Shown piece by piece: positions 524 through 19,171 of a stretch of DNA of 64,000 nt. Numbering within the stretch: the stretch's first letter is position 1; every line of letters starts with the position of its first letter. The notes beneath the pieces are model-generated. The model ran no database searches, was not told the origin of the DNA, and saw only the letters and a list, made by a program, of their open reading frames with translations. The translations under genes and the position numbers were made by a program. Origin of the DNA: a virus. Its lineage: Duplodnaviria; Heunggongvirae; Uroviricota; Caudoviricetes. Where the stretch lies: the IMG/VR virus record IMGVR_UViG_3300037455_000543, positions 59,136 to 123,135 of that record. One strand, written 5' to 3'.

Positions 524-535
524 AAGATAATAATT

Positions 536-685: not shown

Positions 686-698
686 TAGAGGTAATATA

Positions 699-1628: not shown

Positions 1629-1846
1629 TGGATAGACATTATAGTTATGAAGAAGTAAAAGGTTTAAAGCGTCTATATGAAGACGATATTGAAGCCGGTG
1701 AAAAGTATTGTATTCCACTCCCTAGATGGTATGGCGGAGATTGGAGTGAACAACGATTTGATATTTTAGTAGCTGATAAGCCTATTAAGAAAAGCGGTAT
1801 CAGATTTGGACCGTATTTTAAAGTTTATTCAACGGCAGAACAATGA
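1628..1846 (+). CDS. hypothetical protein
   Basis: TAATG overlap. Confidence 0.75.
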   Translation: MDRHYSYEEVKGLKRLYEDDIEAGEKYCIPLPRWYGGDWSEQRFDILVADKPIKKSGIRFGPYFKVYSTAEQ

Positions 1847-2274: not shown

Positions 2275-2276
2275 TT

Positions 2277-2483
2277 ATGATAGATAATGAATTGACAGAA
2301 AGAGTAGCATCTAAAATTCTACAAGCTAGATATGACATGTATATCTGGGCTTGGGTTAAAGGCGATGAATGGCTTAAAGCTCAAAATGAAAAATTGAAAG
2401 CAGAAAATAAACCAGAAATGTATGGCACTGTTGAAGAATATTATAACTATTATTTAAAATATTGGTGTACAGGACACGCATAG
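2277..2483 (+). CDS. hypothetical protein
   Basis: 68-aa ORF in coupled run. Confidence 0.7.
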   Translation: MIDNELTERVASKILQARYDMYIWAWVKGDEWLKAQNEKLKAENKPEMYGTVEEYYNYYLKYWCTGHA

Positions 2484-2484
2484 T

Positions 2485-2706
2485 ATGAAAATATCAGAAC
2501 TTATTGAGTTCTTAAATGAACAAAAAGAACAATATGGCGATATCGAAGTTTGGCATCATGATTATATTGATGATGACCAAGGTTTTATAAAATGTCCGCT
2601 CAATAAGGATATTTTTTATGTAGATAAAGATTTTTATCTGGCTGAAGACGGTTGTCATTATGATATAGCCGGTGGCAAAAAAGATATGTTAATAATTGAT
2701 TATTAA
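2485..2706 (+). CDS. small protein, KISELIxxL..YGDIxV family
   Basis: N-terminus MKISELIEFLNEQKEQYGDIEV resembles ORF 3283. Confidence 0.75.
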   Translation: MKISELIEFLNEQKEQYGDIEVWHHDYIDDDQGFIKCPLNKDIFYVDKDFYLAEDGCHYDIAGGKKDMLIIDY

Positions 2707-2720
2707 AATAAGGAATTAAT

Positions 2721-3200
2721 ATGGAATGGATTAAAGTAGAAGATAAATTACCTGAAAAAGGTCAATATGTTCTCGTTACATTTAAAAACGGTTTCGACAA
2801 TAAACCAAGTTATGGACTTGAAATTGCTGAATATTATGGTAATAATTCATGGGCATTAACTGACGGTGAATACGATGTTGCCGGACCTGTTATTGCATGG
2901 CAAGAATTACCAAAACCTTATATTGAACCTGGATTTAAGGATGCTAAGTTTAATACAATAGACAATCATTATTATCAAATGATAGTAGACGAAGAAGATA
3001 ATTGGCCAGAAGATTATTACATGGTTCAATATACTGGTATAGACGATGACAATAAAACATTTATACATAGAGATTATTATAGGACTGAAAAATTAGCATT
3101 AAATAGAGTAAGTGAACTTTATGATAATTGTAAAATTAAATATATTGCAGCTTATGCCTATGGCGGTAAAGAAATAAAAAGAATATCAAAACCGCAATAA
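2721..3200 (+). CDS. DUF551-like phage protein
   Basis: MEWIKVEDKLPE...VLV...VIAWQELPKPY, typical DUF551-type domain. Confidence 0.7.
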   Translation: MEWIKVEDKLPEKGQYVLVTFKNGFDNKPSYGLEIAEYYGNNSWALTDGEYDVAGPVIAWQELPKPYIEPGFKDAKFNTIDNHYYQMIVDEEDNWPEDYYMVQYTGIDDDNKTFIHRDYYRTEKLALNRVSELYDNCKIKYIAAYAYGGKEIKRISKPQ

Positions 3201-3282
3201 CAAATATTTAGAAAAATTTACGAATCTGGTTCGCCTTAACCAGATTTTTCTATATTTAATATACAAGTTAAGAGGAAATTCA

Positions 3283-3573
3283 ATGGCAAATATTGAAAAA
3301 GATTATAAGATGTATTTGAAAATCAGTGAATTGATTAAGGCACTGAATAAAGTCAAAAAAGAATATGGCGATATTCCAGTTGGCCATATCGATGGCGGAC
3401 TTGAGGTATATTGGAGTCCTAGAAAAATCAAAGAATGGGGCTCAGAAAAAGCTTTTAAAGATGTAGTTCGTGCAAGTAATATCCGTTACTGGGAAAAAGG
3501 TTCTCTTATGGTCGCAATTATAGATTTTCCAGGTTGGGGTTGGAAACCACTTAGTTGTAAGGATGATGACTAA
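3283..3573 (+). CDS. small protein, KISELIxxL..YGDIxV family
   Basis: LKISELIKALNKVKKEYGDIPV; GAGG SD. Confidence 0.75.
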   Translation: MANIEKDYKMYLKISELIKALNKVKKEYGDIPVGHIDGGLEVYWSPRKIKEWGSEKAFKDVVRASNIRYWEKGSLMVAIIDFPGWGWKPLSCKDDD

Positions 3574-3630
3574 TCATGAAAAGAACCGACATTTAAAATG
3601 AGAAAATTTTTCTAATGAAGTAGGAAATAA

Positions 3631-3873
3631 ATGACTCAAGAAGACTTTATGAAACTGTGTCGGGTATATCTTCCGAACTGTCATTTTAAGGACAAAGATA
3701 CTTGTGGTCTTTGTTGTTATAATAATGGCGATGATATTCATAATATCATAGTGGCATTATTACCGGATGGCAGGTTCGCGGTCTATGACAAGTGGCGGGA
3801 TATTACAGAAACATATGATATCGATTATGTGAAAGACTGGCTTGAACATTGTAGTTACAGGTATAAGAAATGA
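3631..3873 (+). CDS. hypothetical Cys-rich protein
   Basis: 80-aa ORF, AGGA SD. Confidence 0.75.
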   Translation: MTQEDFMKLCRVYLPNCHFKDKDTCGLCCYNNGDDIHNIIVALLPDGRFAVYDKWRDITETYDIDYVKDWLEHCSYRYKK

Positions 3874-4040
3874 CCATTAAAGAATTAACAGACGAATTAA
3901 AAAAATATCCTGAAGAAATGATGATTTTAGGCACAGATTCATTACATTGGGTTGATCCTAAAACATTTGAAACATTTTATATTTTGTATAATAGACCAAT
4001 TTTACCGTTTAATATATTAGAGAGTAATTATGACTACTGA
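3870..4040 (+). CDS. small protein, MT(V/I)xELIxxL family (56 aa)
   Basis: Manually translated MTIKELTDELKKYPEEMMI...; ATGA overlap. Confidence 0.65.
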   Translation: MTIKELTDELKKYPEEMMILGTDSLHWVDPKTFETFYILYNRPILPFNILESNYDY

Positions 4041-4515
4041 AGAAGCAGAAATTTCACGCAACAGAGCAAACGAAATCGAAAAATGGCTTAAAGAAGAATA
4101 TCCGAATATTCATGTAGAACACTTACGTGATTGTGGCACAAAGCTATTCTATTTTAAAGATCCGACCAGCGAATATAGATGTATCGGCATGATTCAGATT
4201 CCGATTAGCGTAATACATGAAGAAGTTAACCCGCAGAATGGCCATATACATTGCACATTCGCATATAAGAAAGTAATTTTTAATGCCATCGATGTAGAAT
4301 ATGACATGGAAATCTTCTGGAAGATTTTTGAGCATAATAAGCAGGTTATTAAAGATTATATCGAAAAGTCTTTAAAGGAACAGCTTGTTGGTATCATTAA
4401 ACCGCAGCACCCGGCATATACGATGGATGATGCCATAAATGACATAACAAAAGAACTACAAGACGAAATCGACAGAGAAACAATTAAAAAGATAATTGAA
4501 AAATTAAAAAAATGA
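4030..4515 (+). CDS. hypothetical protein
   Basis: 161-aa ORF. Confidence 0.75.
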   Translation: MTTEEAEISRNRANEIEKWLKEEYPNIHVEHLRDCGTKLFYFKDPTSEYRCIGMIQIPISVIHEEVNPQNGHIHCTFAYKKVIFNAIDVEYDMEIFWKIFEHNKQVIKDYIEKSLKEQLVGIIKPQHPAYTMDDAINDITKELQDEIDRETIKKIIEKLKK

Positions 4516-4673
4516 CAGTAGCACAACTCATTGAAAAACTTAAAGAAATGCCACAAGATATGGAAGTCTATGATTGGAATTACTATCCGGTTGAAGATCC
4601 AATTGTAAAAACCCTAGAATTATGGGCTACTGGTCCAAATGTTGAAGAAAAGACGGTAGTATTTTTTCCGTAG
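4512..4673 (+). CDS. small protein, MT(V/I)xELIxxL family (53 aa)
   Basis: Manually translated MTVAQLIEKLKEMPQDMEV...; ATGA overlap. Confidence 0.7.
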   Translation: MTVAQLIEKLKEMPQDMEVYDWNYYPVEDPIVKTLELWATGPNVEEKTVVFFP

Positions 4674-4676
4674 GAG

Positions 4677-4883
4677 ATGCATAGAAATATGACAGAAGAA
4701 GAGATGAAAAAGTATTCGTATGAAGAACTTTTAAACATGTATTTGCAATTAAAAGAAGAAATGGAAAAAAGAGGACTATATGAGGAGTATTTAGAAGAAA
4801 AAGGCGCCGGTGCAATAGAATTAGACAAAGCAATAAAAAAGTCTTTCGAAAATCTTTATATACCAATGGCCGAAAAGAAATAG
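4677..4883 (+). CDS. hypothetical protein
   Basis: 68-aa acidic helical ORF. Confidence 0.65.
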   Translation: MHRNMTEEEMKKYSYEELLNMYLQLKEEMEKRGLYEEYLEEKGAGAIELDKAIKKSFENLYIPMAEKK

Positions 4884-4910
4884 TATACTATGATATAATG
4901 GAGAATAAAT

Positions 4911-5060
4911 ATGACAGTTGAAGAACTTATAAAAGAATTAGAAAAATTCCCTAAGGATTTACCTGTTATCGATTTTGAACATGACTATATTACAGAAGTT
5001 AATTTAGCTTTAAAATATGACGAGGACAATGATTCTATAGAGGTAGTAAAGGTTTGGTAA
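4911..5060 (+). CDS. small protein, MT(V/I)xELIxxL family (49 aa)
   Basis: Manually translated MTVEELIKELEKFPKDLPV...; GGAG SD. Confidence 0.7.
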   Translation: MTVEELIKELEKFPKDLPVIDFEHDYITEVNLALKYDEDNDSIEVVKVW

Positions 5061-5061
5061 T

Positions 5062-5235
5062 ATGACAGTAAAAGAATTAAATAAAAAATTAGAAAAATAT
5101 ATTGATAAAGGTTTTGGCAATGCCGAATTAAAAACATCTGATCAAGGCGGAAATGACGGTGAAGTCTTAGGTGTTTATGATTATGATGATCCAAATGAAA
5201 ATGATGGCAAGGTTGTAGTTATTGAGATTGCATAA
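5062..5235 (+). CDS. small protein, MT(V/I)xELIxxL family (57 aa)
   Basis: Manually translated MTVKELNKKLEKYIDKGFGNAEL... Confidence 0.65.
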   Translation: MTVKELNKKLEKYIDKGFGNAELKTSDQGGNDGEVLGVYDYDDPNENDGKVVVIEIA

Positions 5236-5396
5236 TAAAAATATATAATGCATATTATTATGAAGTCAACTATTGATTCTGATTTTGGATTGATGCTTAA
5301 TTCTGGGCCTGATCATGGACCTCGTAGATTATCTTTAACATGTGCAGATTTGCAAGAAAATATTCAAGTATATATTCCAACTAAGGAAGAACTTAA

Positions 5397-5404
5397 TATA
5401 AATA
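5397..5404 (+). promoter_or_regulatory. T4-type late promoter TATAAATA (glycan operon 1)
   Basis: Exact TATAAATA 21 nt before ATG 5426. Confidence 0.65.
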
Positions 5405-5425
5405 AAAAGAATTGGTGAGATTATA

Positions 5426-6190
5426 ATGGATAATGTAAAAATTTATGTTTGTTGTCATAAAGATTATGATAATGTTGGTATTGATAATCCATGCTATAAA
5501 TTAATTACTAAAAATAATATAAAAAATAATTCAAAATTAAATATAATAAAAATAGATAAAAGCTTAGACGATAGAATGTGGTCTGAACTTTCTGCTATTT
5601 ATTATATTTGGAAGCACCAAGAATTATATGCTGATTGGATTGGTTTTAATCATTATAGACGTTATTTTGATTTTATGAATGTTGTTCCGCAACAATTTAC
5701 TAAACCAATTATACCTGAACATAGCACATTATTTTTTAATAATTATGCCATGTATGATGTTTGTCATAATAGTGCAGATTTACGTAAAGTATTAAACATT
5801 GTTGCAACAAAATATCAGAAATATTATAATGGCTTTATGTCAATGCTCGATAGCCATATATTATATTCTTATAATATGTTTGTATTACCGCTTAATATTT
5901 TTAAAGAATATTGTGAATTTATTTTTGGCGTTCTTGGCGAATTTGATAAAGAATTAAATATCAATAATGATTATGTATCTATGTTAAAACATATAGCAAA
6001 TCATAGAGAAGCTTATGTTGAACGTGATAATTATCCAAATAATACTTATGAATATCAAGCTAGAGTATTTGGATTTTTGGCCGAACGTTTAACTACTGCG
6101 TTTTTTATGAATTATATGATAAATTTTGGACAAAATGCTGTAGAAGAACGCAAAATTATTATAACAGAAAAAACTTATAATGTGATGTAA
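5426..6190 (+). CDS. DUF4422 glycosyltransferase (galactofuranosyltransferase-like)
   Basis: IYVCCHK, SELSAIYYIWK, IGFNHYRRYF, YNMFV, RVFGFLAERL motifs. Confidence 0.85.
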   Translation: MDNVKIYVCCHKDYDNVGIDNPCYKLITKNNIKNNSKLNIIKIDKSLDDRMWSELSAIYYIWKHQELYADWIGFNHYRRYFDFMNVVPQQFTKPIIPEHSTLFFNNYAMYDVCHNSADLRKVLNIVATKYQKYYNGFMSMLDSHILYSYNMFVLPLNIFKEYCEFIFGVLGEFDKELNINNDYVSMLKHIANHREAYVERDNYPNNTYEYQARVFGFLAERLTTAFFMNYMINFGQNAVEERKIIITEKTYNVM

Positions 6191-6191
6191 T

Positions 6192-6917
6192 ATGTACGAT
6201 ATTGTTTTATCATTCACTTCTTGGAAAGGTCGAATTTATGATGAATCTTTGATTACAGTATTGAATTCGATGCTTAATCAAACCACAACAAGAAACTATA
6301 AAGTTGTATTGGTATTGTCGACTGATGAATTTACAAATAAAGAAAAAGATTTACCTGCAAATTTGCTTAAAATAGCAGAAACTAATGATATATTTGAAAT
6401 TTTATGGACTAAAGAAAATACTAAAGCTTATAAAAAGTATTTTCCAACTCGCAGAAAATACCCAAATGAAAATATTTGTATATTAGATGATGATTCTGAA
6501 TTACATTCTGATTTTGTTAATGTAATGTGCACAATGCTTGATAAAAATCCTGGTAAAATGCTTATTGGCACGAATCATTTTTATCAAAATCAAAACACGA
6601 ATATTGTTCATGTACGATATGGCGCAGCTTGCTATCGACCTGATTCTTTGTATGATTTAGATGAGCATTTCGGAATGAAATACTTTAAAGATCATGATGA
6701 TGAATTATATCTATTGGCATCTGTTTTAAATGGAACACATTCAGTATGTTTTGATTGCCATGCATTAATAGATGTCGATAAATATCAGCAAGATAAAAGA
6801 CTAATGAATGTTGGCAATTTAGAATATGCACATATTGGTAGAATGTGGCTTGATTGTTTAGTCGATAATCCTGAATTGGCAATAATATATAATAAAAATA
6901 AAAATATTAAGAATTAA
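6192..6917 (+). CDS. GT-A fold glycosyltransferase-like protein
   Basis: SFTSWKGRI, AYKKYFP, ICILDDD (DxD) motifs. Confidence 0.7.
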   Translation: MYDIVLSFTSWKGRIYDESLITVLNSMLNQTTTRNYKVVLVLSTDEFTNKEKDLPANLLKIAETNDIFEILWTKENTKAYKKYFPTRRKYPNENICILDDDSELHSDFVNVMCTMLDKNPGKMLIGTNHFYQNQNTNIVHVRYGAACYRPDSLYDLDEHFGMKYFKDHDDELYLLASVLNGTHSVCFDCHALIDVDKYQQDKRLMNVGNLEYAHIGRMWLDCLVDNPELAIIYNKNKNIKN

Positions 6918-6919
6918 TT

Positions 6920-7582
6920 ATGAAAATTTATATAGTTGGAAGTTCAAAGAATATATTTCCACCAGAAGATAACATTCGTAAAAGGTTCTATGTTGATGAA
7001 ACACATGAAGGAGATAACATTGATAAGTTAAATCCTTGGTATTGCGAATTGACTGGTATGTATTATATGTGGAAGCACGAAAAAGAAGATATAGTAGGTC
7101 TTGAACATTATCGTAGAAATTTTATAGGTAAAAATGGTTTACTTAATGAAGATGAAATTAAAGAAATTCTAAAAGACAATGATGTAATTCTTTATCGCAT
7201 GGGTCTTAAACAAAATGCTATGCAGCACATGAATGGCGCAGGAAAAGGAACAGAACTTGCTTTAGGCCTTGCTAATCTTTATGCTAATTATGGTAAAGAT
7301 ATGGCAGATTATTTTTATAAGAATTTTATAGGTGACCATGTTTATTTAGGTAATATGTTTATATGTAAAAAAGAAATAGCTGATAAATTCTTTGATTTTA
7401 TATTTAATGGTATTCTTAAAGATTTTGATAAAATACATCAATTTAAGACTCCACGGATTGACGGATATATTTGCGAATACTTTATGGAACCTTGGTTTAG
7501 ATACAATGGATATAAAATATATAATTGTGAACGCCAAGTAATGGATAAAACATACACAAGAAGACTTCCTAATTGGGCATAA
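6920..7582 (+). CDS. DUF4422 glycosyltransferase (second paralog)
   Basis: NPWYCELTGMYYMWK, VGLEHYRR, GNMFICKK, RIDGYICE. Confidence 0.85.
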   Translation: MKIYIVGSSKNIFPPEDNIRKRFYVDETHEGDNIDKLNPWYCELTGMYYMWKHEKEDIVGLEHYRRNFIGKNGLLNEDEIKEILKDNDVILYRMGLKQNAMQHMNGAGKGTELALGLANLYANYGKDMADYFYKNFIGDHVYLGNMFICKKEIADKFFDFIFNGILKDFDKIHQFKTPRIDGYICEYFMEPWFRYNGYKIYNCERQVMDKTYTRRLPNWA

Positions 7583-8671
7583 ATGAAAACACATTATGAT
7601 ATAATTTTAGTTGGGACTGGACTTTTTAATGCTGTCCTTGCATATCGTTTAACAAGACTTGGAAAATCTGTCCTTGCAATTGAAAAAAGAAATCATATAG
7701 CTGGTAACTGCTATACTTATGAAAAAGACAATATTGATGTTCATCAATATGGAGCACACATTTTCCATACCTCTAATGAAGAAGTATGGAAGTTTGTAAA
7801 TCAGTTTGGTGAATTTAATAGCTTCGTCAATAGCCCGATTGCTAATTATAAGGATGAGATATACAACCTTCCATTTAATATGAATACATTTAATAGGTTG
7901 TATGGTGTTATCACTCCAGAACAAGCAAAGAATGCGATTATGAAGGAAACGCGGGACTGCTTTACTGATAATCCTAAGAATCTTGAAGAACAGGCTATTA
8001 ACTTGGTCGGAAAGAAGATGTATGTGAAGCTCATTAAAGGCTATACAGAAAAACAATGGGGAAGAAAATGCACAGAACTTCCGCCTGAGATTATCAAGCG
8101 TCTTCCTTTGAGATTTACGTACGACAATAATTATTTTAATGATAAGTATCAAGGCATTCCAGTTGAAGGCTATACAAAGCTTATCGAAAAGATGTTTGAC
8201 GGATGTGATATTCTTTTGGAAACCGATTTCCTCAAAGATAAGGAAAAATGGGAATCCATGTCTGATAAGATTTATTATTCTGGTTGTATTGATGAATACT
8301 ATGGATATTGCTATGGACCGCTTGAATATCGTTCTGTTCGATTTGAAACAGTTGAATATGACAAGGAAAACTATCAAGGTAATGCTGTTATAAACTATAC
8401 TTCTGACGAAGAACCTTTCACAAGAATTATTGAACACAAGTGGTTCAATAATAAAGGTAGTGATAAGACTATTGTTAGTCGAGAATATAGTTCTGAATGG
8501 AAGAAAGGTGAAGTTCCATATTATCCCGTAAATAATGAAAAAAATAATGCCTTATATCAAAAATATAAGAATATTAAAAACGATAAGACAATTATGGTTT
8601 CTCGCCTAGGCACATACCGTTATTTAGACATGGGTGACTGTATTGGAGAAGCATTAAATATAGAATTATAA
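7583..8671 (+). CDS. glf: UDP-galactopyranose mutase
   Basis: GTGLFNAV FAD loop, GNCY, HQYGAHIFHT, GYTEKQWG, YQGIP, LEYRS, RLGTYRYLDM. Confidence 0.97.
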   Translation: MKTHYDIILVGTGLFNAVLAYRLTRLGKSVLAIEKRNHIAGNCYTYEKDNIDVHQYGAHIFHTSNEEVWKFVNQFGEFNSFVNSPIANYKDEIYNLPFNMNTFNRLYGVITPEQAKNAIMKETRDCFTDNPKNLEEQAINLVGKKMYVKLIKGYTEKQWGRKCTELPPEIIKRLPLRFTYDNNYFNDKYQGIPVEGYTKLIEKMFDGCDILLETDFLKDKEKWESMSDKIYYSGCIDEYYGYCYGPLEYRSVRFETVEYDKENYQGNAVINYTSDEEPFTRIIEHKWFNNKGSDKTIVSREYSSEWKKGEVPYYPVNNEKNNALYQKYKNIKNDKTIMVSRLGTYRYLDMGDCIGEALNIEL

Positions 8672-8691
8672 AAATATTAAAAAATAAAGAG

Positions 8692-8720
8692 TTTACAGCG
8701 AGACAAAAATTTACTATATT
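8692..8720 (+). promoter_or_regulatory. sigma70-like early promoter
   Basis: TTTACA-17 bp-TATATT. Confidence 0.7.
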
Positions 8721-8762
8721 TTAATTGCGATGGGTGTCCGTCATAATATAAAGGAAAATTAA

Positions 8763-9173
8763 ATGGATCCGACAACATTAACAATTATTGCTATTATCTG
8801 CCCGATTTTAACAGGTATAGGTGGTGTATTTTTAGGTCATTATTTAGCGAGCAAACGAATAGATATAGAAATACAGAAACTTATAAAAAAAGACATTCAA
8901 ACAGAAAAACGGCATAAAGAAGAAAAATTTGAAAATGCTATACAATATTGGGGAATTTTAGGAAATTTCTCGGTTACTTCCAAAGATAAAAATGATAAAA
9001 AAGAATGGTCAATTTATGAAAAGTTTTATCTTATGGAATGTAAAGAACGAAAAGATTTATACCAATGGTTAAAGACTAATCAAATAATGGAAGTTTCTGA
9101 TTTTATCTATTGGCTTGACAAAAAAATCCCTCAATGGCAAGTCACTAGATTTTTAGAACCAATTAAACGATAA
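8763..9173 (+). CDS. membrane-anchored hypothetical protein
   Basis: N-terminal TM helix; own early promoter inside glycan cluster. Confidence 0.7.
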   Translation: MDPTTLTIIAIICPILTGIGGVFLGHYLASKRIDIEIQKLIKKDIQTEKRHKEEKFENAIQYWGILGNFSVTSKDKNDKKEWSIYEKFYLMECKERKDLYQWLKTNQIMEVSDFIYWLDKKIPQWQVTRFLEPIKR

Positions 9174-9205
9174 TAAAAAGGTTAGCAAAATGCTAACCTT
9201 CTTTT
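9174..9205. terminator. bidirectional intrinsic terminator
   Basis: AAGGTTAGCA-aaa-TGCTAACCTT flanked by A and T runs between convergent genes. Confidence 0.75.
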
Positions 9206-9821
9206 ATATATGTGTTATAATACCAGTTATACTTCGTTTATTATTTGTTTTTATATTTGCTATAATTTGTATTTGCTTAATATTCTTGATAACTTCTTCA
9301 GTTTTTACCTGTCCAGGATAACCTACTGGTATAATGTTAGAAATTATATCATTAAGATACTGTAAAGTGCCTTTGTTATTATGAAAAACATATTCATTAG
9401 CATTATGAACATTAGTTGATGTATGTAAATCTTCTATAATATATTGTCCGCCAGATTTTAAGCAGTCAAATAACATTTCAAATGATTTTATTTGATGTTC
9501 TATAATATGAGAGCCATCATCTACAATAATATCTATGTTTTTATTATTTGAGAGATTTGATAATTGTTCTATATTTCCTTGATCTAATAGTTTTACTTCT
9601 ATGTTAGAATTAAATGATAAATGAGATTTATCATTAATGTCATAACCAACTATTTTTGCGGTCGGATAATAGTCTGCCCACATTCTTAATGAAGCACCAT
9701 CTAGTACACCAATTTCCCATAGTTCATTAATGTTTTTATTTAATTCTTTTTCATAAGAATTACAAAAATCATGTAAATAAGCTTTATCAGTATTATATTT
9801 TATGCCTAATTCATTTAACAT
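9204..9821 (-). CDS. SAM-dependent sugar O-methyltransferase-like protein
   Basis: TDK..H, WEIGVLDGASLRMW, GYDI, DQG, DIIVDDGSH, YIIEDL (MycE/TylE-type pattern). Confidence 0.8.
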   Translation of the reverse strand: MLNELGIKYNTDKAYLHDFCNSYEKELNKNINELWEIGVLDGASLRMWADYYPTAKIVGYDINDKSHLSFNSNIEVKLLDQGNIEQLSNLSNNKNIDIIVDDGSHIIEHQIKSFEMLFDCLKSGGQYIIEDLHTSTNVHNANEYVFHNNKGTLQYLNDIISNIIPVGYPGQVKTEEVIKNIKQIQIIANIKTNNKRSITGIITHI

Positions 9822-9829
9822 ATTATCCC

Positions 9830-10489
9830 CTATTGTTCAAGTTTTTTCCAACTTACACCTTTAATGTGTCTAAAAAATGAATTGTCTTTAAAATAAACGA
9901 AGTTATATTTTGCGACATTTTCATAAAGGCCTCGTCCAGTATCATAGCACATTTGATGCGTTATATCCAAAAATTTATCTTCTGTTAAAAATTTTAAATT
10001 CATTTCTATGAATTTTTTACGATTTATAAAACAACAATGCGGAGCAACTCTAGGCATTCTTGTACTTCCTATATCTTCAGGAGTTATACAAGAATAAAAA
10101 GGCTGATTACTTTCAATTAAAAAATCAATTTTATCATCAAAAACTTCATTAATAATTACATCAGTATCAAATAAAAGAATAATATCAGCATTAGATATAT
10201 TGTAAATATAATTATCTACTGTATATGCATGATGAGCTGAACCATATAATGATGCTGACTTACGTAAATGAATTTTATTTTTTTCTTTTAATGTATTGAT
10301 AAAATTATTAGCTTCTTTATGAAAATTTATAATATTAAATAAACTATTATTATCTTCAAAATTAATTGGTCCATTATTTATAATTGTAATCTCAAATTGA
10401 TATTTTTTAATACATTTATATAAACCTATTATGAGCTGTTTTACATAATCTGGTGTATTAAAATTCACTGTTAATGCTTCTATTTTCAT
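9830..10489 (-). CDS. GT2-like glycosyltransferase
   Basis: Start moved to MKIEALTVNFNT; IINNG, HHAYTVD, LLFDTDV (DxD). Confidence 0.7.
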   Translation of the reverse strand: MKIEALTVNFNTPDYVKQLIIGLYKCIKKYQFEITIINNGPINFEDNNSLFNIINFHKEANNFINTLKEKNKIHLRKSASLYGSAHHAYTVDNYIYNISNADIILLFDTDVIINEVFDDKIDFLIESNQPFYSCITPEDIGSTRMPRVAPHCCFINRKKFIEMNLKFLTEDKFLDITHQMCYDTGRGLYENVAKYNFVYFKDNSFFRHIKGVSWKKLEQ

Positions 10490-10494
10490 ATATA

Positions 10495-10508
10495 TATTTA
10501 TATAAATA
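10495..10508. promoter_or_regulatory. overlapping divergent late promoters
   Basis: TATAAATA on - (10495-10502) and + (10501-10508) between divergent glycan operons. Confidence 0.7.
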
Positions 10509-10512
10509 AAAT

Positions 10513-11187
10513 ATGACATATACAATAATTCAAGCAGTGACAAATAGTTATGATAAAATTTTTGATTGTAATGATTTAAATGCAACAGAACGATTATTGT
10601 TTACCGATAATAAAACTAATGTAAAAAATTGGAATATCCAATATATAAAACCCGCAAAAGATTATCCATTTGATGATATTTTCAGTATTCGATGGAATCC
10701 ATTTAAATATACAAATACTGATTATGTAATATGGTTAGATGGTAGTATTAAAATAAATGGTAGTGTTAAAAAATATATTGATGAAATGATAAAAACAAAT
10801 AGTGATTTTGGTGTTCTTAAACATCCGTTTAGGAATAATATATTTGATGAATATCGTGAATGGTGCAAAATAAGAAATTATAATCAAACTATGGCATTTA
10901 AATGGTTAAATTATATTACAGAAAATGGTTGGAATCCTAAAAACATTGGATTATATCAAGTTAATGTATGTATATTTAAAAATACGGAAAGAATTAAGCA
11001 ATTTTGTTTAGACGCATGTAAAGAATTACATGTAATGGATAATAAACATTTTGAACGTTTAGATCAACCAATAATTACGTATTTGTTAAAAACTAAATAT
11101 AAAGATTTAAATATTTTAGAACTTAGTGAAAAAATGTATAAAAATTCGAAAGAATTAAAATGGGTTTATAAACATCCAAAAAGATAA
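10513..11187 (+). CDS. DUF616-like glycosyltransferase
   Basis: AVTNSYD, LLFTDN, IWLDGSI, KHPFRNNIFDE, RLDQPII. Confidence 0.75.
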   Translation: MTYTIIQAVTNSYDKIFDCNDLNATERLLFTDNKTNVKNWNIQYIKPAKDYPFDDIFSIRWNPFKYTNTDYVIWLDGSIKINGSVKKYIDEMIKTNSDFGVLKHPFRNNIFDEYREWCKIRNYNQTMAFKWLNYITENGWNPKNIGLYQVNVCIFKNTERIKQFCLDACKELHVMDNKHFERLDQPIITYLLKTKYKDLNILELSEKMYKNSKELKWVYKHPKR

Positions 11188-11208
11188 ATTAAATATTGGT
11201 ATAAAAAT

Positions 11209-12330
11209 ATGGAAAAACCAGTTATATTATTTGAAAGTATTCCAGATTTTACAGGTAGTTCATTATCATTATATAATGAGTTTATTAGGCGTGGTTTTGA
11301 TAAAAAATATGATTTATTGTGGACCGTCTCTAAAACAGCAAAACTAAACCCAAAATTTAGAACTGTTTCATTATTTAAAATGGAAAATAGCAATTTAATT
11401 GATAATACTATACAAAATCAAAATATACTAAAAAGAACAAAGCTTATAATAGATAGTAACAGGTTAATTAAAAAACCGTCAATTAATTCTTATAGAATAC
11501 ATGTAAGACATGGCTGTGCTTTTAAAGACTGTTCAAAAATATATTATAAAAATGTTGGAGAATTAGATGCTATAATTACGACATCAAAAGAAATGAAATC
11601 GATTGACCAAAAATTTTGGGCTTCATGTGTAAAAGATAAATTTATTATTACTGGTTTACCATCAACCGACCGTTTATTTAAACCAACTGACCTATATTCA
11701 AATGGATTTATTTATGAATTAACAAAAACTAATAATAAATTTACAAAAATTATTGGTTGGCTTCCTACATTTAGAACAGGTAAAAGCGGTATTTTTGCCG
11801 GAAAAAAATTTAAATTTGGAATACCAATTCTGTATAATCTTGAGGATTTAAAGGAAATTAATGAATATTTAAAACAGCAAAACATATTATTACTTATACA
11901 AATTCATCACTATCAAATGAAAGATTTTGTAGTTCCTGAATTATCAAATATAATTTATATAACTGAGCAAATTAAACAAAAATATAATATAACTACCCAT
12001 GATTTAATGCCTGCATTTGATGCATTAATTACAGATTATTCTGCTGCATACCATGAATATATTTTATTAGATAGACAAATAGGTTTAACCATAGATGATT
12101 TAGTTGAATATAGCAAAACTGAAGGTTTTTGTTATAATTATCTTGATTGGATAAAAGGTAAATATATATTGGATAAATCTGATTTACTGTCATTTATAAA
12201 TAATGTTATAACAGATAATGATACTGAAAAAGAAAAAAGAGAACAAAGTTTACATAAAATACATGATTTTATTGATGGAAACTCAACTAATAGGGTTATA
12301 GATTATTTAATAGTGAATGCAAAATTATGA
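11209..12330 (+). CDS. CDP-glycerol glycerophosphotransferase (TagB/TagF family)
   Basis: HVRHG..FK, ITGLPSTD, IGWLPTFR, IHHY, DALITDYSAAYHEYILLDR, DGNSTNRV. Confidence 0.85.
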   Translation: MEKPVILFESIPDFTGSSLSLYNEFIRRGFDKKYDLLWTVSKTAKLNPKFRTVSLFKMENSNLIDNTIQNQNILKRTKLIIDSNRLIKKPSINSYRIHVRHGCAFKDCSKIYYKNVGELDAIITTSKEMKSIDQKFWASCVKDKFIITGLPSTDRLFKPTDLYSNGFIYELTKTNNKFTKIIGWLPTFRTGKSGIFAGKKFKFGIPILYNLEDLKEINEYLKQQNILLLIQIHHYQMKDFVVPELSNIIYITEQIKQKYNITTHDLMPAFDALITDYSAAYHEYILLDRQIGLTIDDLVEYSKTEGFCYNYLDWIKGKYILDKSDLLSFINNVITDNDTEKEKREQSLHKIHDFIDGNSTNRVIDYLIVNAKL

Positions 12331-12962
12331 ATTTAATGGAATATCTATATAAAACTTATGGGCAAAAAAGAGTAGATGATATTCTTTATTATTTGCCAGC
12401 AGATAAAAATTATCAAATTCTAAAACAACATTTAGAATTAACAGAATATACTGAAGAAAATCTTTCTCACTATAAATCTTTAGTAATTTCGAAACTTGAA
12501 TGTAAAATATCAGACAAGCTTTTTCTTTATGATCTTTCAAATATTATAGCTAATACAGATTTTAAGTTTAAAGATTATAATACAATTATTACTTATGGAA
12601 CTTTTGATTTATTTCATATTGGTCATTTGAAATTACTTGAAAGAATTTCAAAGATGTGTAATAATTTAATCGTTGCAGTTTCTACCGATGAATTTAATGC
12701 ACTTAAGGGTAAGAAATGCATTATTCCTTTTGAACAAAGAGCTGCTATTGTTGCTGGATGCAAATATGTCACAAAAGTTATTCCTGAAACTTGCTGGGAA
12801 CAAAAAGAAAAAGACATTGAAAAATATAATGTAGATGCTTTTGTAATGGGAGATGATTGGAAAGGAAAATTTGATTTCTTAAAAGAAAAGTGCGAAGTAG
12901 TTTATCTGCCACGCACTCCTGATATTTCTACAACTTTATTAAAAACAACAATAGGTAAATAA
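12327..12962 (+). CDS. tagD: glycerol-3-phosphate cytidylyltransferase with ~80-aa N-terminal extension
   Basis: ITYGTFDLFHIGH, AVSTDEFN, MGDDWKGKFD, LPRTPDISTT. Confidence 0.9.
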   Translation: MNLMEYLYKTYGQKRVDDILYYLPADKNYQILKQHLELTEYTEENLSHYKSLVISKLECKISDKLFLYDLSNIIANTDFKFKDYNTIITYGTFDLFHIGHLKLLERISKMCNNLIVAVSTDEFNALKGKKCIIPFEQRAAIVAGCKYVTKVIPETCWEQKEKDIEKYNVDAFVMGDDWKGKFDFLKEKCEVVYLPRTPDISTTLLKTTIGK

Positions 12963-12965
12963 ATT

Positions 12966-13589
12966 ATGTTATGTGTATTAGGCTGTTTAGATACAAAATA
13001 TGGAAAAGAAATAGCAAATGAAATGTTAAACTGGTTAAAACCAGAACATGATGTTCTTGAAATACACCAAGAACCACCTGGAGAATTATTTGAATATCCT
13101 GCGATAAATTATGTTATAAAATTAGCAATTGATACAAATGAACCAGTATTATATGTACACACGAAAGGTGCAGGAAATCCAATACCGCCACAATATAAAA
13201 AATATATAATAAATAAAAATATTAATGTTCCCAAAACAGCGACTAAACAAGATTGTCAGAAAACAGTTAGAAACATGTGGAAACATGAATTTACTGGCGA
13301 AAGATTACAAAATTATTTAACAGCAATAAATACAAATAAACCAACAGTTGTATGTCCATTAACTGGTATTGAAAAAGTTACTTGGCAAAATGGGTGGATA
13401 ATTAATCCGGCAGCTGCAAAAATATTAAGAGAAAGTTTTCATTTTGATTCAAATAGATATTATTATGAAAATTTATTTTCAAAAACAAATATAAATGTTA
13501 TTGGCATGATTTCAAATACATGTAATCGTAAAGATAATTTATATTTAAAAAAAATGTGGAATATAATTTGGAAATTTTATAATATTTAA
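12966..13589 (+). CDS. glycan-cluster protein with YxHTKG motif
   Basis: LYVHTKG motif, seen in glycosyltransferase-like viral proteins; cluster context. Confidence 0.6.
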   Translation: MLCVLGCLDTKYGKEIANEMLNWLKPEHDVLEIHQEPPGELFEYPAINYVIKLAIDTNEPVLYVHTKGAGNPIPPQYKKYIINKNINVPKTATKQDCQKTVRNMWKHEFTGERLQNYLTAINTNKPTVVCPLTGIEKVTWQNGWIINPAAAKILRESFHFDSNRYYYENLFSKTNINVIGMISNTCNRKDNLYLKKMWNIIWKFYNI

Positions 13590-14197
13590 ATATTAAAAAA
13601 TTCTTTTATTATTTTTAAATTATTTTTTACGGTCGGTTCAGGATTTTCAATTCTATTTACTAAAATCGTTTTACAAAAATTATCATTTCTTTTTATATTT
13701 TTATTTTTTGTAATTATTATACGTTTATATTGACTATTACAATTAGCGATATCATTTAAATTATATTTTATATTAGAATTACCTAATGTTTCTTCTCTAA
13801 TTAAAAAACATGGTTCTTCTTTAAGGCTTAACATTCTTTTTGTGCGTTCAATATATTTTTCATTAACAAATTCCCAAATTTTATTATAGCAAATATCACC
13901 TGTCCAATGTTCTTCAATATCATATTTCTTTTTTTGAATAATTTGTGTTGCTGTTGGATCAAAAATATAATGAACATAATTAATTTCTATCTTATTATCT
14001 ATTCTTATAATAAATGTATTTGGTTTAATTTTTGATTTATCCATTTCATAATTAAACCAATTTATATTTTTAAAATTATTTAACACTTCATATATACTAT
14101 CATATGATGAAATCATCCAAATAAAAGGATTATTAAATTTATTATTGGTTTGCTGATATAATCTGCCACCACAACAATTATTAGAAATTACAAACAT
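13586..14197 (-). CDS. DUF1919-like polysaccharide biosynthesis protein
   Basis: ISNNCCGGRLYQ...FNNPF, YVHY, W...Y.ERTKRM. Confidence 0.75.
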   Translation of the reverse strand: MFVISNNCCGGRLYQQTNNKFNNPFIWMISSYDSIYEVLNNFKNINWFNYEMDKSKIKPNTFIIRIDNKIEINYVHYIFDPTATQIIQKKKYDIEEHWTGDICYNKIWEFVNEKYIERTKRMLSLKEEPCFLIREETLGNSNIKYNLNDIANCNSQYKRIIITKNKNIKRNDNFCKTILVNRIENPEPTVKNNLKIIKEFFNI

Positions 14198-14225
14198 TAT
14201 TTTCTCATTATTTCTTTTATGCTCA

Positions 14226-14540
14226 CTATTTCTTATCCAGCTTATGGATTAATTTTTCTATATATTTTTTAATATCTTCTTTATCCTGTTCAGAAGAAAA
14301 CCACTTGCCTTTACCATCGCAGCTTACACAAAGATCATCTTCGTCAAAGAAAATATCGCAAACAGTTAGTCTTTCATTAATGTCAGTAATCTTAATACTG
14401 TTACCGTCATACCAGGCAGTTCCGATTTTTTCTTCTCTAAGAGAATCATTTAAATATTGACAGAGGTCGTCATATCCTTCAATAGATTCTACAAGATAAC
14501 CGGCGGTTTTTAATGTATTGATTGCTTCATTTAGATTCAT
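14226..14540 (-). CDS. LNEA-motif late protein
   Basis: MNLNEAINTLKTAGYLVES. Confidence 0.8.
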   Translation of the reverse strand: MNLNEAINTLKTAGYLVESIEGYDDLCQYLNDSLREEKIGTAWYDGNSIKITDINERLTVCDIFFDEDDLCVSCDGKGKWFSSEQDKEDIKKYIEKLIHKLDKK

Positions 14541-14543
14541 GAT

Positions 14544-14897
14544 TTAACCTTCGCCCCATTTGCCAGGTTCAAACATATCGGCAGGTCTTTCATTTTCCGG
14601 TAAGCACTTACTCAAACAGTCATAGAAAGCGGCCAATGCTTCGGACGCAGCCAAGATATCTTGCTGTAAGAATTCAATATCTGACTTTTTTGCTAAAATG
14701 TCACCAGCTTTTAGGTTTCTCATCTTAGTCAGATAGCTCATATAATATTTCCAGTCCGGACAAAGATATTCGTCCGTAATATATTCTGACAAGTTTTGAA
14801 TCGATTTCACGTCTTCCTGGCTAACCTGATAACCATCGAGATCTTCTACCAAATAATCGTTCTTGGAAAGAACTTTTAATGCTTCGTCTAAATTCAT
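14544..14897 (-). CDS. LNEA-motif late protein
   Basis: MNLDEALKVLSKNDYLVED. Confidence 0.8.
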   Translation of the reverse strand: MNLDEALKVLSKNDYLVEDLDGYQVSQEDVKSIQNLSEYITDEYLCPDWKYYMSYLTKMRNLKAGDILAKKSDIEFLQQDILAASEALAAFYDCLSKCLPENERPADMFEPGKWGEG

Positions 14898-14909
14898 AAA
14901 TAAAACCCG

Positions 14910-14942
14910 TTTACAGTTCCATCGTTTTTTATTATATTTATA
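14910..14942. promoter_or_regulatory. overlapping early (+) and late (-) promoters
   Basis: TTTACA(14910)-17-TATATT(14933) on +; TATAAATA on - at 14935-14942. Confidence 0.7.
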
Positions 14943-14945
14943 ATT

Positions 14946-15257
14946 ATGATTCAGGAACAGGAAAAATTAGACAACGCCCTAGCGGTTATCAAGGATATTA
15001 AGGAAAGGGCTAAAACTAGACGACATCTATGGCTTCATTATCTTGAAACGAGCGGTAAAAATCCCAATGATCTCTGGATTTTGAGGATGACTGACGGTAA
15101 TTATGATGTCACAGATGATGGCGTATTCTATGTAATCTGGGATAACGGCGAATATTGCTACGCATTTATCCCCATGGATTTTGTTTTCATGACTGACAAG
15201 GAAATCGGCGAGATGATTACAAGGGACAGAACAGTCAAGCGTGAATGGGAGAAGTAA
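14946..15257 (+). CDS. hypothetical protein
   Basis: First gene after early promoter. Confidence 0.75.
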   Translation: MIQEQEKLDNALAVIKDIKERAKTRRHLWLHYLETSGKNPNDLWILRMTDGNYDVTDDGVFYVIWDNGEYCYAFIPMDFVFMTDKEIGEMITRDRTVKREWEK

Positions 15258-15712
15258 TGGTCGATATTAAAGATTTTATCAATAATATGTGCAATGACTC
15301 TAAAATCGTATATGTATTTGATGCAGTTCATGGCGCTAATGTAGAGGAATCAAAGAAGATTACTCTTGTAAATACTTCTTTACTCGATGACGTCATTCGT
15401 ATTCTTTATGGCATGGTGGAATGCTTTAAACCGGAAGTATTTCCAACAATGTCGATTATTCTCTATCATCCTGAACTCATGCATACTCAATGGGAATTAG
15501 ATAATGCTGAAGTTCAAAATTGTACTGGAATTCCAGCAAATGTAGGCCATATTATTAGCGGATATATGGGTGAAAGAAAAAATAAGCGTGCTGCATCTTT
15601 TAAATTTATGGACGATTTACTTAGTCAGTTAGAAAAACAAGGCGTAACAGTATATCGTCTTGCAGGCGATTACATGAAAGAACAAAATAAAAATAAAGAA
15701 GGTAATAATTAA
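15257..15712 (+). CDS. hypothetical protein
   Basis: TAATG overlap; ORF track start 15245. Confidence 0.7.
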   Translation: MVDIKDFINNMCNDSKIVYVFDAVHGANVEESKKITLVNTSLLDDVIRILYGMVECFKPEVFPTMSIILYHPELMHTQWELDNAEVQNCTGIPANVGHIISGYMGERKNKRAASFKFMDDLLSQLEKQGVTVYRLAGDYMKEQNKNKEGNN

Positions 15713-15714
15713 TT

Positions 15715-16200
15715 ATGAGTAATTATAGACGAGGTACTTATAAGAATGACAAGATGAAAGAATCCCTGATGGAGTTGGGTCGTCTCAGGGCGCAGAGAAA
15801 ACAGCTCGATAACCAGATTAACAAGATTCTGAAAGACGCTGATGATCCGGTTGACTTGGGTGACGGATTCTTCCAACGCAGAAACATTCTGTTCGTAGAT
15901 TTCTCTGAATTCCAAGAGGTATGTAGCAAAAACGATCTTGATGTTTCCATCGACGAAAACCTTGACATTTTACATGATACCAGTTTCCCGAGTAGCTGCA
16001 GTGAGATTAACGAACTGGATGAAGATTCTACCATCGATGCAGCAATTAAGTATCTGGATAATACGGTTGCTATGCTTAACATGTTCAGGGCAAATCTTGA
16101 CAGGGCAAAGGATTCAGGCTGCGAATACCTGGTCGACTACGGTTGCACCGAACCGAAGGATTTTGACTTCAACGACGACGATGACGATGACGATGATTAA
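15715..16200 (+). CDS. acidic hypothetical protein with poly-Asp tail
   Basis: Ends DFDFNDDDDDDDD; basic N-terminus. Confidence 0.75.
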   Translation: MSNYRRGTYKNDKMKESLMELGRLRAQRKQLDNQINKILKDADDPVDLGDGFFQRRNILFVDFSEFQEVCSKNDLDVSIDENLDILHDTSFPSSCSEINELDEDSTIDAAIKYLDNTVAMLNMFRANLDRAKDSGCEYLVDYGCTEPKDFDFNDDDDDDDD

Positions 16201-16522
16201 CGTAACATTGGAAAGAGAAAAGTTCATGATTGCCTGTCGTGCGTTTTTCCCAAATTGTGAATTCGCAGGACTGGACGAAAAAGGGCCAAACATTTTCATG
16301 AATGAAGTCGAATACGCTCCTGAAAAGCATGTCTGGGCAAGTCTCTATCTTAACCAGCCAGGCGATAAGCCAGGAAAACCAGTCTGGCTGGAAGAACCAG
16401 TCTATAAGCTGGCCTATGAAATCGACAAGCGAAGTTATGCTACACGAGAGAACGAAGTCTTTTTTGTGGATCTCAAAGCATTCTCAAATGCGCTTAAGGA
16501 ATTAAAAAAGGTTGACGGTTAG
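16193..16522 (+). CDS. hypothetical protein
   Basis: 3' part of ORF 15938; ATG 16193 overlaps upstream stop. Confidence 0.65.
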   Translation: MINVTLEREKFMIACRAFFPNCEFAGLDEKGPNIFMNEVEYAPEKHVWASLYLNQPGDKPGKPVWLEEPVYKLAYEIDKRSYATRENEVFFVDLKAFSNALKELKKVDG

Positions 16523-16540
16523 TCGGCCTTTTATTATATC
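16508..16540 (+). promoter_or_regulatory. terminator hairpin with embedded early-type promoter
   Basis: AAGGTTGAC-ggtta-GTCGGCCTT+T run; TTGACG(16512)-17-TATATC. Confidence 0.55.
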
Positions 16541-16560
16541 GCCTATTTTTTGAAAACTCT

Positions 16561-16568
16561 TATAAATA
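16561..16568 (+). promoter_or_regulatory. late promoter TATAAATA
   Basis: Exact match 19 nt before ATG 16588. Confidence 0.7.
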
Positions 16569-16587
16569 ATAAAAATAGGAGTTTCAA

Positions 16588-16851
16588 ATGAATTTAAACG
16601 AAGCCACTCAGCTTTTAAAGAAAAACGGATATATTGTTGAATCTGTTTTCGATGAACCACAATATAAAGAATGGTACGGAATTTTCCACGATAAACTTTT
16701 GGACGGTTTTGTAAGTCTGGAAATCGATGATAAATTTGAGCAGTTCTTAGAAGACCATAAGAACGAAATCCAGCGTGGCTTCCTTATGGGTAAACCGCCT
16801 AAGGCATTTTCTTATTCGATTCTCGATAAATATTTAAACGAGCTGCAATAG
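16588..16851 (+). CDS. LNEA-motif late protein
   Basis: MNLNEATQLLKKNGYIVES; AGGAG SD. Confidence 0.8.
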   Translation: MNLNEATQLLKKNGYIVESVFDEPQYKEWYGIFHDKLLDGFVSLEIDDKFEQFLEDHKNEIQRGFLMGKPPKAFSYSILDKYLNELQ

Positions 16852-16881
16852 AACAGAACGTAATTAATAATTATGCTTTTT

Positions 16882-16917
16882 AAAAGGGTTGACATTTAGT
16901 CGACCCTTTTCTATATT
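16882..16917 (+). promoter_or_regulatory. terminator/early-promoter module
   Basis: AAAAGGGTTGAC-attta-GTCGACCCTTTT; TTGACA(16889)-17-TATATT. Confidence 0.75.
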
Positions 16918-16924
16918 TAAAAAT

Positions 16925-17146
16925 ATGAAATTTAGACTATATGCTTATCGACGTTCAACTGGTGAAGGAATTATGAAAGAATATCGTAAATTCCTTGATG
17001 GCGCAATAGAAGCCAATAAGTTGAAGAAAGACCCAGATATTGTCTATGTAACGTTAGGAGAAATAACCAAAGACTATTCAGGAATAGTTACTGTAGGACC
17101 AAAACCAATCTTGTTTACCCCAATTGAAGAAAAATATTGGAACTAA
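16925..17146 (+). CDS. hypothetical protein
   Basis: Start moved to ATG 16925 after promoter. Confidence 0.7.
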   Translation: MKFRLYAYRRSTGEGIMKEYRKFLDGAIEANKLKKDPDIVYVTLGEITKDYSGIVTVGPKPILFTPIEEKYWN

Positions 17147-17158
17147 AAAGGAGCAAAA

Positions 17159-17572: not shown

Positions 17573-17575
17573 ATC

Positions 17576-17935: not shown

Positions 17936-17945
17936 GAGTTTAATT

Positions 17946-18449: not shown

Positions 18450-18450
18450 T

Positions 18451-19170: not shown

Positions 19171-19171
19171 T

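Follow-up and report, generated by a model that had tools for sequence, protein, structure and literature searches.

A galactofuranose and glycerol-phosphate glycan island behind late-type promoters in a T4-like megaphage, with the virion as its possible target

We have identified, in a 64,000-nucleotide stretch of a tailed-phage genome, an island of glycan genes that is predicted to be expressed late in infection and to pair the synthesis of galactofuranose (Galf) and glycerol-phosphate donors with matching transferases. The stretch, hereafter the window, comprises bases 59136-123135 of IMG/VR record IMGVR_UViG_3300037455_000543, a complete 424,163-bp virus with direct terminal repeats; coordinates are those of the window unless the whole genome (G000) is named. 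The island consists of four operons within 5397-14942, each headed by the octamer TATAAATA. Our leading reading, to which we assign a probability of roughly 40%, is that the product glycosylates the phage particle itself. We infer from the sequence the late timing, the product chemistry and, above all, the virion as target. To our knowledge, large phages often carry blocks of glycan genes, and we know of no experiment that has shown which target they decorate.

Because the major capsid protein is of the Gp23 family and homologues of T4 gp43, gp44, gp17, gp18, gp20, gp21, gp23, gp4, gp14 and UvsW are encoded, the virus is a T4-like megaphage. Its genomic G+C content is 35%, that of the island genes is 20-29% (Glf 33%), and that of two small genes at the head of the fourth operon is 32-39%. 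Operon A has the order GT111 (DUF4422)/GT-A/GT111/Glf; operon B encodes a GT2-like protein and an S-adenosylmethionine (SAM)-dependent methyltransferase; operon C encodes TOD1-like, TagF-like, TagD-like and YVHTKG proteins; and operon D encodes the two small "LNEA" proteins and a DUF1919 protein (Table 1). The initial annotation had listed ten glycan genes together with a YxHTKG protein, and searches of Pfam, NCBIfam, PHROG and the PDB upheld that list, most of the weaker calls included. Its minus-strand start at TTG 10585 was replaced by ATG 10489. Helix prediction found no membrane segment in any island enzyme.

The claim that TATAAATA stands before every operon was confirmed at 5397(+), at an overlapping divergent pair at 10495(-)/10501(+) and at 14935(-). 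The number of copies in the window (19 against 13.6 expected) is not above chance, and the signal is positional. Across the genome, 94 of 125 copies fall in the approximately 10% of DNA that is intergenic, that is, outside the set of open reading frames (ORFs), and 81 of the 125 have a gene start no more than 60 nt downstream in the matching orientation; among 55 permuted A5T3 octamers the median share is 10%. A late regulon was recognized by octamers about 10 nt before the transcription start and upstream of virion structural genes; TATAAATA precedes the genes for the portal, the gp21-like prohead protease and three terminase fragments, the first gene of the scaffold/capsid operon, and uvsW. 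This placement supports the earlier proposal that TATAAATA acts here as a T4-type late promoter. PHROG profiles also returned a gp45-like clamp (E 3.4e-9) and a gp55-like sigma candidate (E 4.6e-7), the control for the latter also drawing in bacterial sigma factors; T4 gp55 and gp45 as single-sequence queries found nothing in the genome. The similarity to the gp17 large terminase is split over three distant ORFs, each behind TATAAATA (G000 8644-9570(-), 185460-186380(+) and 239806-240864(+)).

A second, early-type class, GTTTACA-N14/15-T(A/T)CTATATT, has 54 strict copies genome-wide, concentrated in three stretches poor in TATAAATA (G000 10-41 kb, 275-330 kb and 380-424 kb). Early-type signals in the window start at 8691, 14909, 26611, 29921, 34951, 38006, 44619, 52778 and 61874. 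Only the first two fall in the island region, at 8691 ahead of a gene for a 136-aa protein and at 14909 ahead of the first gene beyond the island. The 136-aa protein is probably a resident early gene product and not a glycan enzyme. No early-type signal stands ahead of a glycan operon in the window or within the islands of the four related phages compared below, and operons B, C and D have the late-type signal only.

Both promoter classes have features of their own. The divergent pair at 10495/10501 would give leaderless mRNAs. About 30 genes in G000 have TATAAATA 4-5 nt before the ATG and no Shine-Dalgarno sequence, implying leaderless late mRNAs (in the window at 10495/10501 and 43507/43511), and the palindrome TATTTATAAATA is common to several divergent pairs (G000 32838/32842, 102642/102646, 215861/215865, 232020/232024 and 256344/256348). 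Many early-type boxes have the ATG 7-9 nt past TATATT, which would make early mRNAs leaderless as well.

The enzyme assignments fall into two donor-transferase pairs, as had been claimed: Glf with the GT111 enzymes and the TagD-like with the TagF-like protein. The Pfam cut-off for PF14393 is 25 bits, against the 110 bits reached by both GT111 genes, and the first of these matches the WbbM structure 6U4B (E 2.6e-10) with its HYRR motif aligned. Transfer of Galf by these enzymes is predicted: WbbM is the sole characterized member of the family, and co-transcription with Glf is circumstantial. Glf itself carries PF13450 (NAD_binding_8) in its N-terminal part (E 1.9e-18), matches phrog_9677 (E 7e-133) and is 80% and 72% identical to the Glf proteins of the related phages G001 and L091. 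The TagD-like protein scores 161.4 bits against TIGR01518, 4 bits short of the equivalog cut-off of 165.4, and aligns over its full length with Bacillus subtilis TagD (1COZ; E 4e-46), with the HxGH (FHIGH) and RTPDISTT motifs present. It has an extra N-terminal extension of approximately 85 aa that is kept in a relative, and the orthologue in phage L090 is 60% identical over the full length. The TagF-like protein aligns with TarL (8VA1; E 7e-11) at the PTFR, His and DYS..EY motifs; its NCBIfam scores for TarL, TarF and TarB (47.8, 38.7 and 17.7 bits) are all far under the equivalog cut-offs.

The remaining enzymes are assigned with varying firmness. A model of the 241-aa GT-A protein gave 6p61, TarP, RmlT, TarS and SpsA as its best Foldseek matches in the PDB (E ~3e-8); the family has paralogues in every related island, and its alignment shows an invariant DD/DxD-like Asp pair. 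The 219-aa GT2-like candidate has no Pfam match, and its nearest ESM-Atlas clusters are viral GT2 proteins (score 0.98; PF00535 on 20-58% of members). A homologue of the TOD1-like protein, 31% identical, adjoins the TagF-like gene in L091. Atlas neighbours of the 207-aa YVHTKG protein are viral clusters with a weak lead to RgpF, and the protein is probably glycan-related. The methyltransferase had been called a sugar O-methyltransferase: the class-I SAM-dependent assignment stands through phrog_21658, and the sugar O-specificity is putative. The enzyme may act as a glycan O-methylase or cap the chain.

DUF1919, Glf and GT-A are the most widely shared island families, DUF1919 having a homologue in all five phages (G001, G002, L090, L091 and the present one). 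Its AlphaFold2 (AF2) model (predicted local distance difference test score, pLDDT, 94) has one specific structural match, the uncharacterized 2g6t (Z 13). The remaining matches are generic flavodoxin-like folds (Z ≤8.0), and assignment of a function from the fold was abandoned. The 428-kb relative carries the DUF1919 gene as two overlapping frames (L091 12795-13426 and L092 5679-6310; pieces 71% and 58% identical), probably a frameshifted pseudogene, which would mean that DUF1919 is not indispensable in every island. Co-transcription of DUF1919 with the two LNEA genes, suggested by the initial annotation, is plausible because DUF1919 lies downstream of them without a promoter or terminator of its own.

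In G000, an N-terminus of the form M(N/T/E/D/K)(L/I)(N/D/T/S)EA...L(K)..G is shared by at least 13 proteins with no other relationship, in the window at 14226-14897, 16588, 21132 and 50290 as well as elsewhere. These proteins are often encoded by the first gene after a late promoter, and this N-terminus may be a processing or targeting tag. LxE is the cleavage motif of the T4 prohead protease.

Table 1. Features of the glycan island and its flanks (window coordinates; G001, L090, L091 and L097 are related phages or phage contigs)
Feature	Position	Strand	Remarks
TATAAATA late-type promoter, operon A	5397..5404	+	ATG 5426 21 nt downstream; Shine-Dalgarno GGTGAG
GT111/DUF4422 glycosyltransferase 1, predicted galactofuranosyltransferase	5426..6190	+	PF14393 110 bits; 56% identical to G001 orthologue
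GT-A fold glycosyltransferase, 241 aa	6192..6917	+	Pfam GT25/GT2 below threshold; AF2 pLDDT 85
GT111/DUF4422 glycosyltransferase 2	6920..7582	+	PF14393 110 bits; 42-46% identical to G001 and L091 island genes
UDP-galactopyranose mutase (Glf), predicted maker of UDP-Galf	7583..8671	+	PF03275 1-203 of 203, E 1.6e-76
Early-type promoter GTTTACA-N15-CTATATT	8691-8719	+	Ahead of 136-aa protein gene
136-aa protein gene	8763-9173	+	One N-terminal membrane helix; own early-type promoter
Bidirectional terminator hairpin between convergent operons A and B	9178..9200	.	Hairpin prediction
Class-I SAM-dependent methyltransferase	9204..9821	-	phrog_21658 E 7e-28; weak Pfam methyltransferase matches
GT2-like glycosyltransferase candidate, 219 aa	9830..10489	-	ESM-Atlas neighbours alone; start ATG 10489
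Overlapping divergent TATAAATA pair	10495..10508	.	5 nt (minus) and 4 nt (plus) from two ATGs
TOD1/MUCI70 (DUF616-like) glycosyltransferase-like protein	10513..11187	+	PF04765 21.8 bits, cut-off 21.4
TagB/TagF-family CDP-polyol phosphotransferase	11209..12330	+	PF04464 13-365 of 367, E 4e-33
Glycerol-3-phosphate cytidylyltransferase (TagD-like), predicted CDP-glycerol maker	12327..12962	+	TIGR01518 E 1e-47
207-aa YVHTKG protein	12966..13589	+	YVHTKG at residues 65-70; homologues in L090 and L097
DUF1919 protein	13586..14197	-	PF08942 24.4 bits, cut-off 25; 42 homologues, which carry PF08942
Two small resident MNL(N/D)EA proteins, 104 and 117 aa	14226..14897	-	First genes of the DUF1919 transcription unit
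TATAAATA late-type promoter, operon D	14935..14942	-	37 nt before ATG 14897

Relatives were found through the capsid protein. Neither the island nor 20 kb of the window had a Megablast match among GenBank phages, and an Rfam search of window 1-20000 found nothing. IMG/VR scans for close relatives with the TagF-like protein, the first GT111 protein and an upstream 161-aa protein returned nothing, and one with a downstream 239-aa protein returned one partial contig. With the capsid protein, 78 related contigs were recovered, among them records of 415,750, 411,059 and 291,102 bp. The capsid proteins of G001 and G002 are 94% and 91% identical to that of the present phage. Identity to G001 is 88-94% in the DNA immediately before the island, 77% for Glf and 68% for the first GT111 gene. 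G001 has no counterparts of the TagF, TagD, methyltransferase, GT2-like or TOD1-like genes; its island encodes Glf, an SDR epimerase, an IspD/TarI-like cytidylyltransferase, a Stealth protein and three GT111 proteins. The syntenic set in G002 comprises GT2_4, GT4, DUF1919-like and rhamnosyltransferase-like genes. The best homologues of the TagF-like protein, 52-58% identical, are on phage contigs of 346 kb and 428 kb (L090 and L091), the former with an island of TupA-like ATP-grasp, TagF, DUF1919 and TagD genes and the latter with TagF, TarI-like, SDR, GT111, GT-A and Glf genes; more distant homologues are likewise in phage-like contexts.

The islands of all four relatives have low G+C and lie behind TATAAATA, and in L090 an overlapping divergent pair precedes the TagF-like gene as at 10495/10501. 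Best homologues of the island families (50-80% identical) are on other huge phage contigs, and their Atlas neighbour clusters are 86-100% viral. These families are phage lineages and not recent loans from hosts. The clade as a whole keeps the island, whose modules come from a pool carried by phages and vary from strain to strain. Directly upstream of it are three tandem paralogues (53, 49 and 57 aa; 4512-5235(+)) that start MTV(A/E/K)(Q/E)L(I/N)(E/K)KLE(K). The DNA at 4902-5264, with an identity to G001 far above that of the island, may serve as a conserved flank at which recombination exchanges the cassettes.

In the pathway that we propose, phage Glf would turn host UDP-galactose into UDP-Galf for transfer by the two GT111 enzymes, and the TagD-like enzyme would make CDP-glycerol from host glycerol-3-phosphate and CTP, from which the TagF-like enzyme would add glycerol phosphate. 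Host-supplied sugars could be added by three or four more transferases (the 241-aa GT-A, GT2-like, TOD1-like and perhaps YVHTKG proteins), DUF1919 may also take part, and the SAM-dependent methyltransferase would modify or cap the product. Assembly would be cytoplasmic, because all the enzymes are soluble and the phage has no lipid-carrier priming enzyme or exporter, and would occur on an acceptor present late in infection. One or more virion proteins would most likely be this acceptor, yielding a teichoic-acid-like sugar coat that would be strain-specific, since related phages swap the enzyme set at the locus.

A cytoplasmic, late-made acceptor is favoured by the late-class promoters, the soluble enzymes and the lack of priming and export genes taken together. 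A membrane-helix scan of the 424-kb genome found no candidate for a priming transferase, flippase, ABC exporter or ligase, and two ORFs only have at least six predicted helices, an MFS transporter and one other protein. The 381-aa transporter gene (G000 31686-32831(-)) lies behind a leaderless-type TATAAATA; a late membrane transporter is unusual phage cargo.

There are precedents for glycosylating protein in the cytoplasm. Virion glycosylation is established in mycobacteriophages (Freeman et al. 2023, via PMC12619734), where soluble glycosyltransferases of the phage put sugars on its structural proteins within the cytoplasm, as the soluble enzymes of the island would. The acceptors there are C-terminal tails of capsid and tail-tube subunits; the present phage has no such tails, its enzymes belong to other families, and it is uncultured. 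The type A flagellin glycan of Clostridioides difficile (CD0240-CD0244) is made by a glycosyltransferase, a cytidylyltransferase, a TagF-like phosphotransferase and a methyltransferase, which, working in the cytoplasm, join a modification through a phosphodiester bond to a protein-bound sugar (PMC10714395). The shared cytidylyltransferase/TagF-like/methyltransferase set is a precedent for work on a protein-linked sugar, with a likeness at family level only: the C. difficile pathway is bacterial, its proposed donor is CDP-threonine and not CDP-glycerol, and it has no Galf module. The island also encodes a methyltransferase, and methyltransferases are involved in mycobacteriophage virion glycosylation too.

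Several points weigh against the virion as target. Ser/Thr/Gly-rich C-terminal tails are missing from the capsid, sheath, portal and neighbouring structural proteins, among which no C-terminal motif recurs or is enriched. One Ser/Thr-rich late protein was found, a 383-aa fibre-like protein (23188-24339(-)) with 18 Ser or Thr residues in a Ser/Thr/Asn-rich stretch of 30 near the N-terminus, and it has no homologue in the three large relatives. GT111, TagF-like, Stealth and TarI/J enzymes usually act on lipid-linked acceptors at the inner membrane face, and host enzymes could supply priming and export. The late timing is itself read purely from motifs and T4 biology. Early read-through into operon A is possible because the operon ends a long co-directional early array: the TATAAATA at 5397 falls within an ORF of 52-56 aa where an array of approximately 24 kb, begun by an early-type promoter, comes to its end. 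Lastly, the published reading of comparable clusters in T4-like jumbo cyanophages is remodelling of the host envelope (Iyer et al., PMC7824862).

The fibre-like protein could accept the glycan, or else serve as a receptor-binding protein peculiar to the strain. In the distant phage L096, the TagF-like gene is co-transcribed with one for a 1089-aa protein, which was considered as an acceptor and rejected, there being no homologue in the present phage. A sigma70-like TTGAGA-16-TATAAT (5222-5249) was likewise rejected as an early promoter of operon A; it misfits the phage early consensus, and such matches are common in AT-rich DNA (123 against 88 expected). The late-built virion glycan put forward by the initial annotation thus stands in part: late-class promoters, donor-transferase pairing, solubility and the thymidylate-synthase signature described below agree with it, and the structural proteins offer no acceptor tails.

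The strongest alternative, which we regard as possible and less probable than virion glycosylation, is that the enzymes extend or decorate a lipid-linked glycan of the host (O-antigen, capsule or teichoic-acid-like polymer) at the inner membrane face, and that a host primer and ABC exporter provide for its display. Adsorption of competing phages would be blocked, or loss of progeny on cell debris prevented. The serotype-like polymorphism among close relatives is typical of surface-antigen loci. Among the structures closest to the GT-A protein are those of TarP, TarS and RmlT, glycosyltransferases of wall teichoic acid, of which TarP is itself prophage-encoded. GT111 (WbbM), TagF/TarL and TagD here, and Stealth and TarI-like proteins in the relatives, belong to surface-polymer families that depend on ABC transporters (PMC12269835). 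The island shares both its families and its donor-transferase pairings with wall teichoic acid and group-2 capsule systems (TagD/TagF, TarI/J/L and Stealth) and with the Klebsiella O2a and Kingella galactans (Glf with the GT111 enzymes WbbM or PamA; PMC12269835). Those bacterial systems, however, depend on a lipid-linked primer (TagO/TagA/TagB or WecA) and on export by an ABC transporter, and the phage encodes none of these; the helix scan of its genome returned no ligase or flippase either. The promoters also disagree with this alternative, three of the four operons having late-type signals only, a pattern that holds in five phages, and superinfection exclusion, of which T4 imm is an example, is as a rule exerted early. 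The genes, moreover, are old phage lineages and not copies of host loci.

The clusters in P-SSM2-type T4-like jumbo cyanophages that have been described as "LPS/capsule" clusters resemble the island in combining NDP-sugar enzymes with several glycosyltransferase families, in varying among close relatives and in having an inferred function (Iyer et al. 2021, PMC7824862). They differ from it in chemistry, which here is that of Galf and polyol phosphate (Glf/GT111; TagD or TarI-like with TagF-like; Stealth), and the island lies behind a defined late class without the early class. This late-only class argues against the pseudolysogeny or anti-superinfection reading proposed for the cyanophages.

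A cytoplasmic target other than the virion seems improbable. An exported phage adhesin, a host protein or some other protein outside the virion could be modified, or the enzymes could make a free or lipid-bound polymer that sequesters host carriers or precursors late in infection. The soluble enzymes and the lack of an identified acceptor would fit, but the sequence gives no sign of such a target, and clade-wide conservation with diversification argues for a function under selection from outside the cell.

Least probable of all is hypermodification of DNA, in which a sugar or sugar-phosphate chain would be placed on a modified base before packaging. There are precedents: the Glf-bearing T4-like Rhizobium phage RL38J1 has galactose-glucose chains on 5-hydroxycytosine, RB69 and DLP3 have arabinosyl-5-hydroxycytosine, and in such phages, which like ours combine Glf or another NDP-sugar enzyme with several transferases, Glf is tied to DNA glycosylation and transfer occurs late, before packaging (PMC13326640). 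The single thymidylate synthase (TS) homologue (G000 341900-342748; L093 5900-6748), approximately 50% identical to cellular ThyA, has Asp at the dCMP-selecting Asn177 position (PYDIASY), by which cytosines are probably modified. By published criteria, N177D with L143D/E denotes a hydroxymethyl product and N177D with D169N a hydroxy product (PMC13326640); the homologue has N177D only, with Leu143 (ALPPCH) and Asp169 (RSSD) retained. It is therefore predicted to make 5-methyl-dCMP and not a hydroxylated base, and DNA glycosylation is disfavoured because 5-methyl-dCMP gives no hydroxyl acceptor. The enzyme would be the natural equivalent of the dCMP-methylating N229D mutant of L. casei, and the phage DNA may carry 5-methylcytosine in place of cytosine. 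The earlier judgement that DNA modification fits less well is thus strengthened.

The other evidence points the same way. The genome yielded neither a TET/JBP dioxygenase nor a homologue of T4 alpha-glucosyltransferase. The TS gene is approximately 270 kb from the island, beside Rad50/Mre11-like genes, and no nucleotide kinase or GT-B gene adjoins. The DNA glycosyltransferases known to us are GT-B enzymes, unlike the GT111, GT-A and polyol-phosphate transferases of the island. The present phage thus differs from RB69, DLP3 and RL38J1 in its TS signature, in having no GT-B DNA transferases and in the absence of clustering with nucleotide enzymes. Also in the window is an adenylosuccinate-synthetase-like protein (60739-61863(+); PHROG family "2-aminooxy adenylosuccinate synthetase", E 9e-43) that could be PurA-like or PurZ-like; the latter would bear on 2-aminoadenine DNA.

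Hypervariable glycan islands are a known kind of feature in large T4-like phages. New here are the teichoic-acid-like set of modules, Galf with glycerol or ribitol phosphate or Stealth, and the clean promoter-class evidence. Two sharp promoter classes, glycan operons of the late class only and alternative cassettes in relatives make up a natural series for testing the target, and the island would be a source of compact, soluble enzymes with which to engineer Galf and polyol-phosphate glycans. If the product is on the particle, teichoic-acid-like phage "serotypes" would change the view of phage recognition and would bear on detection by hosts, protists and animal immune systems in the gut. More tentatively, and with doubt, we suggest that a clade of T4-like gut megaphages of roughly 350-430 kb may coat its virions with a serotype-like polymer of Galf and glycerol or ribitol phosphate, assembled late in the cytoplasm from swapped cassettes. 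If true, no polyol-phosphate glycopolymer would have been found on a virus particle before, and phages would have their own equivalent of the clade-specific fibril glycans that giant viruses carry.

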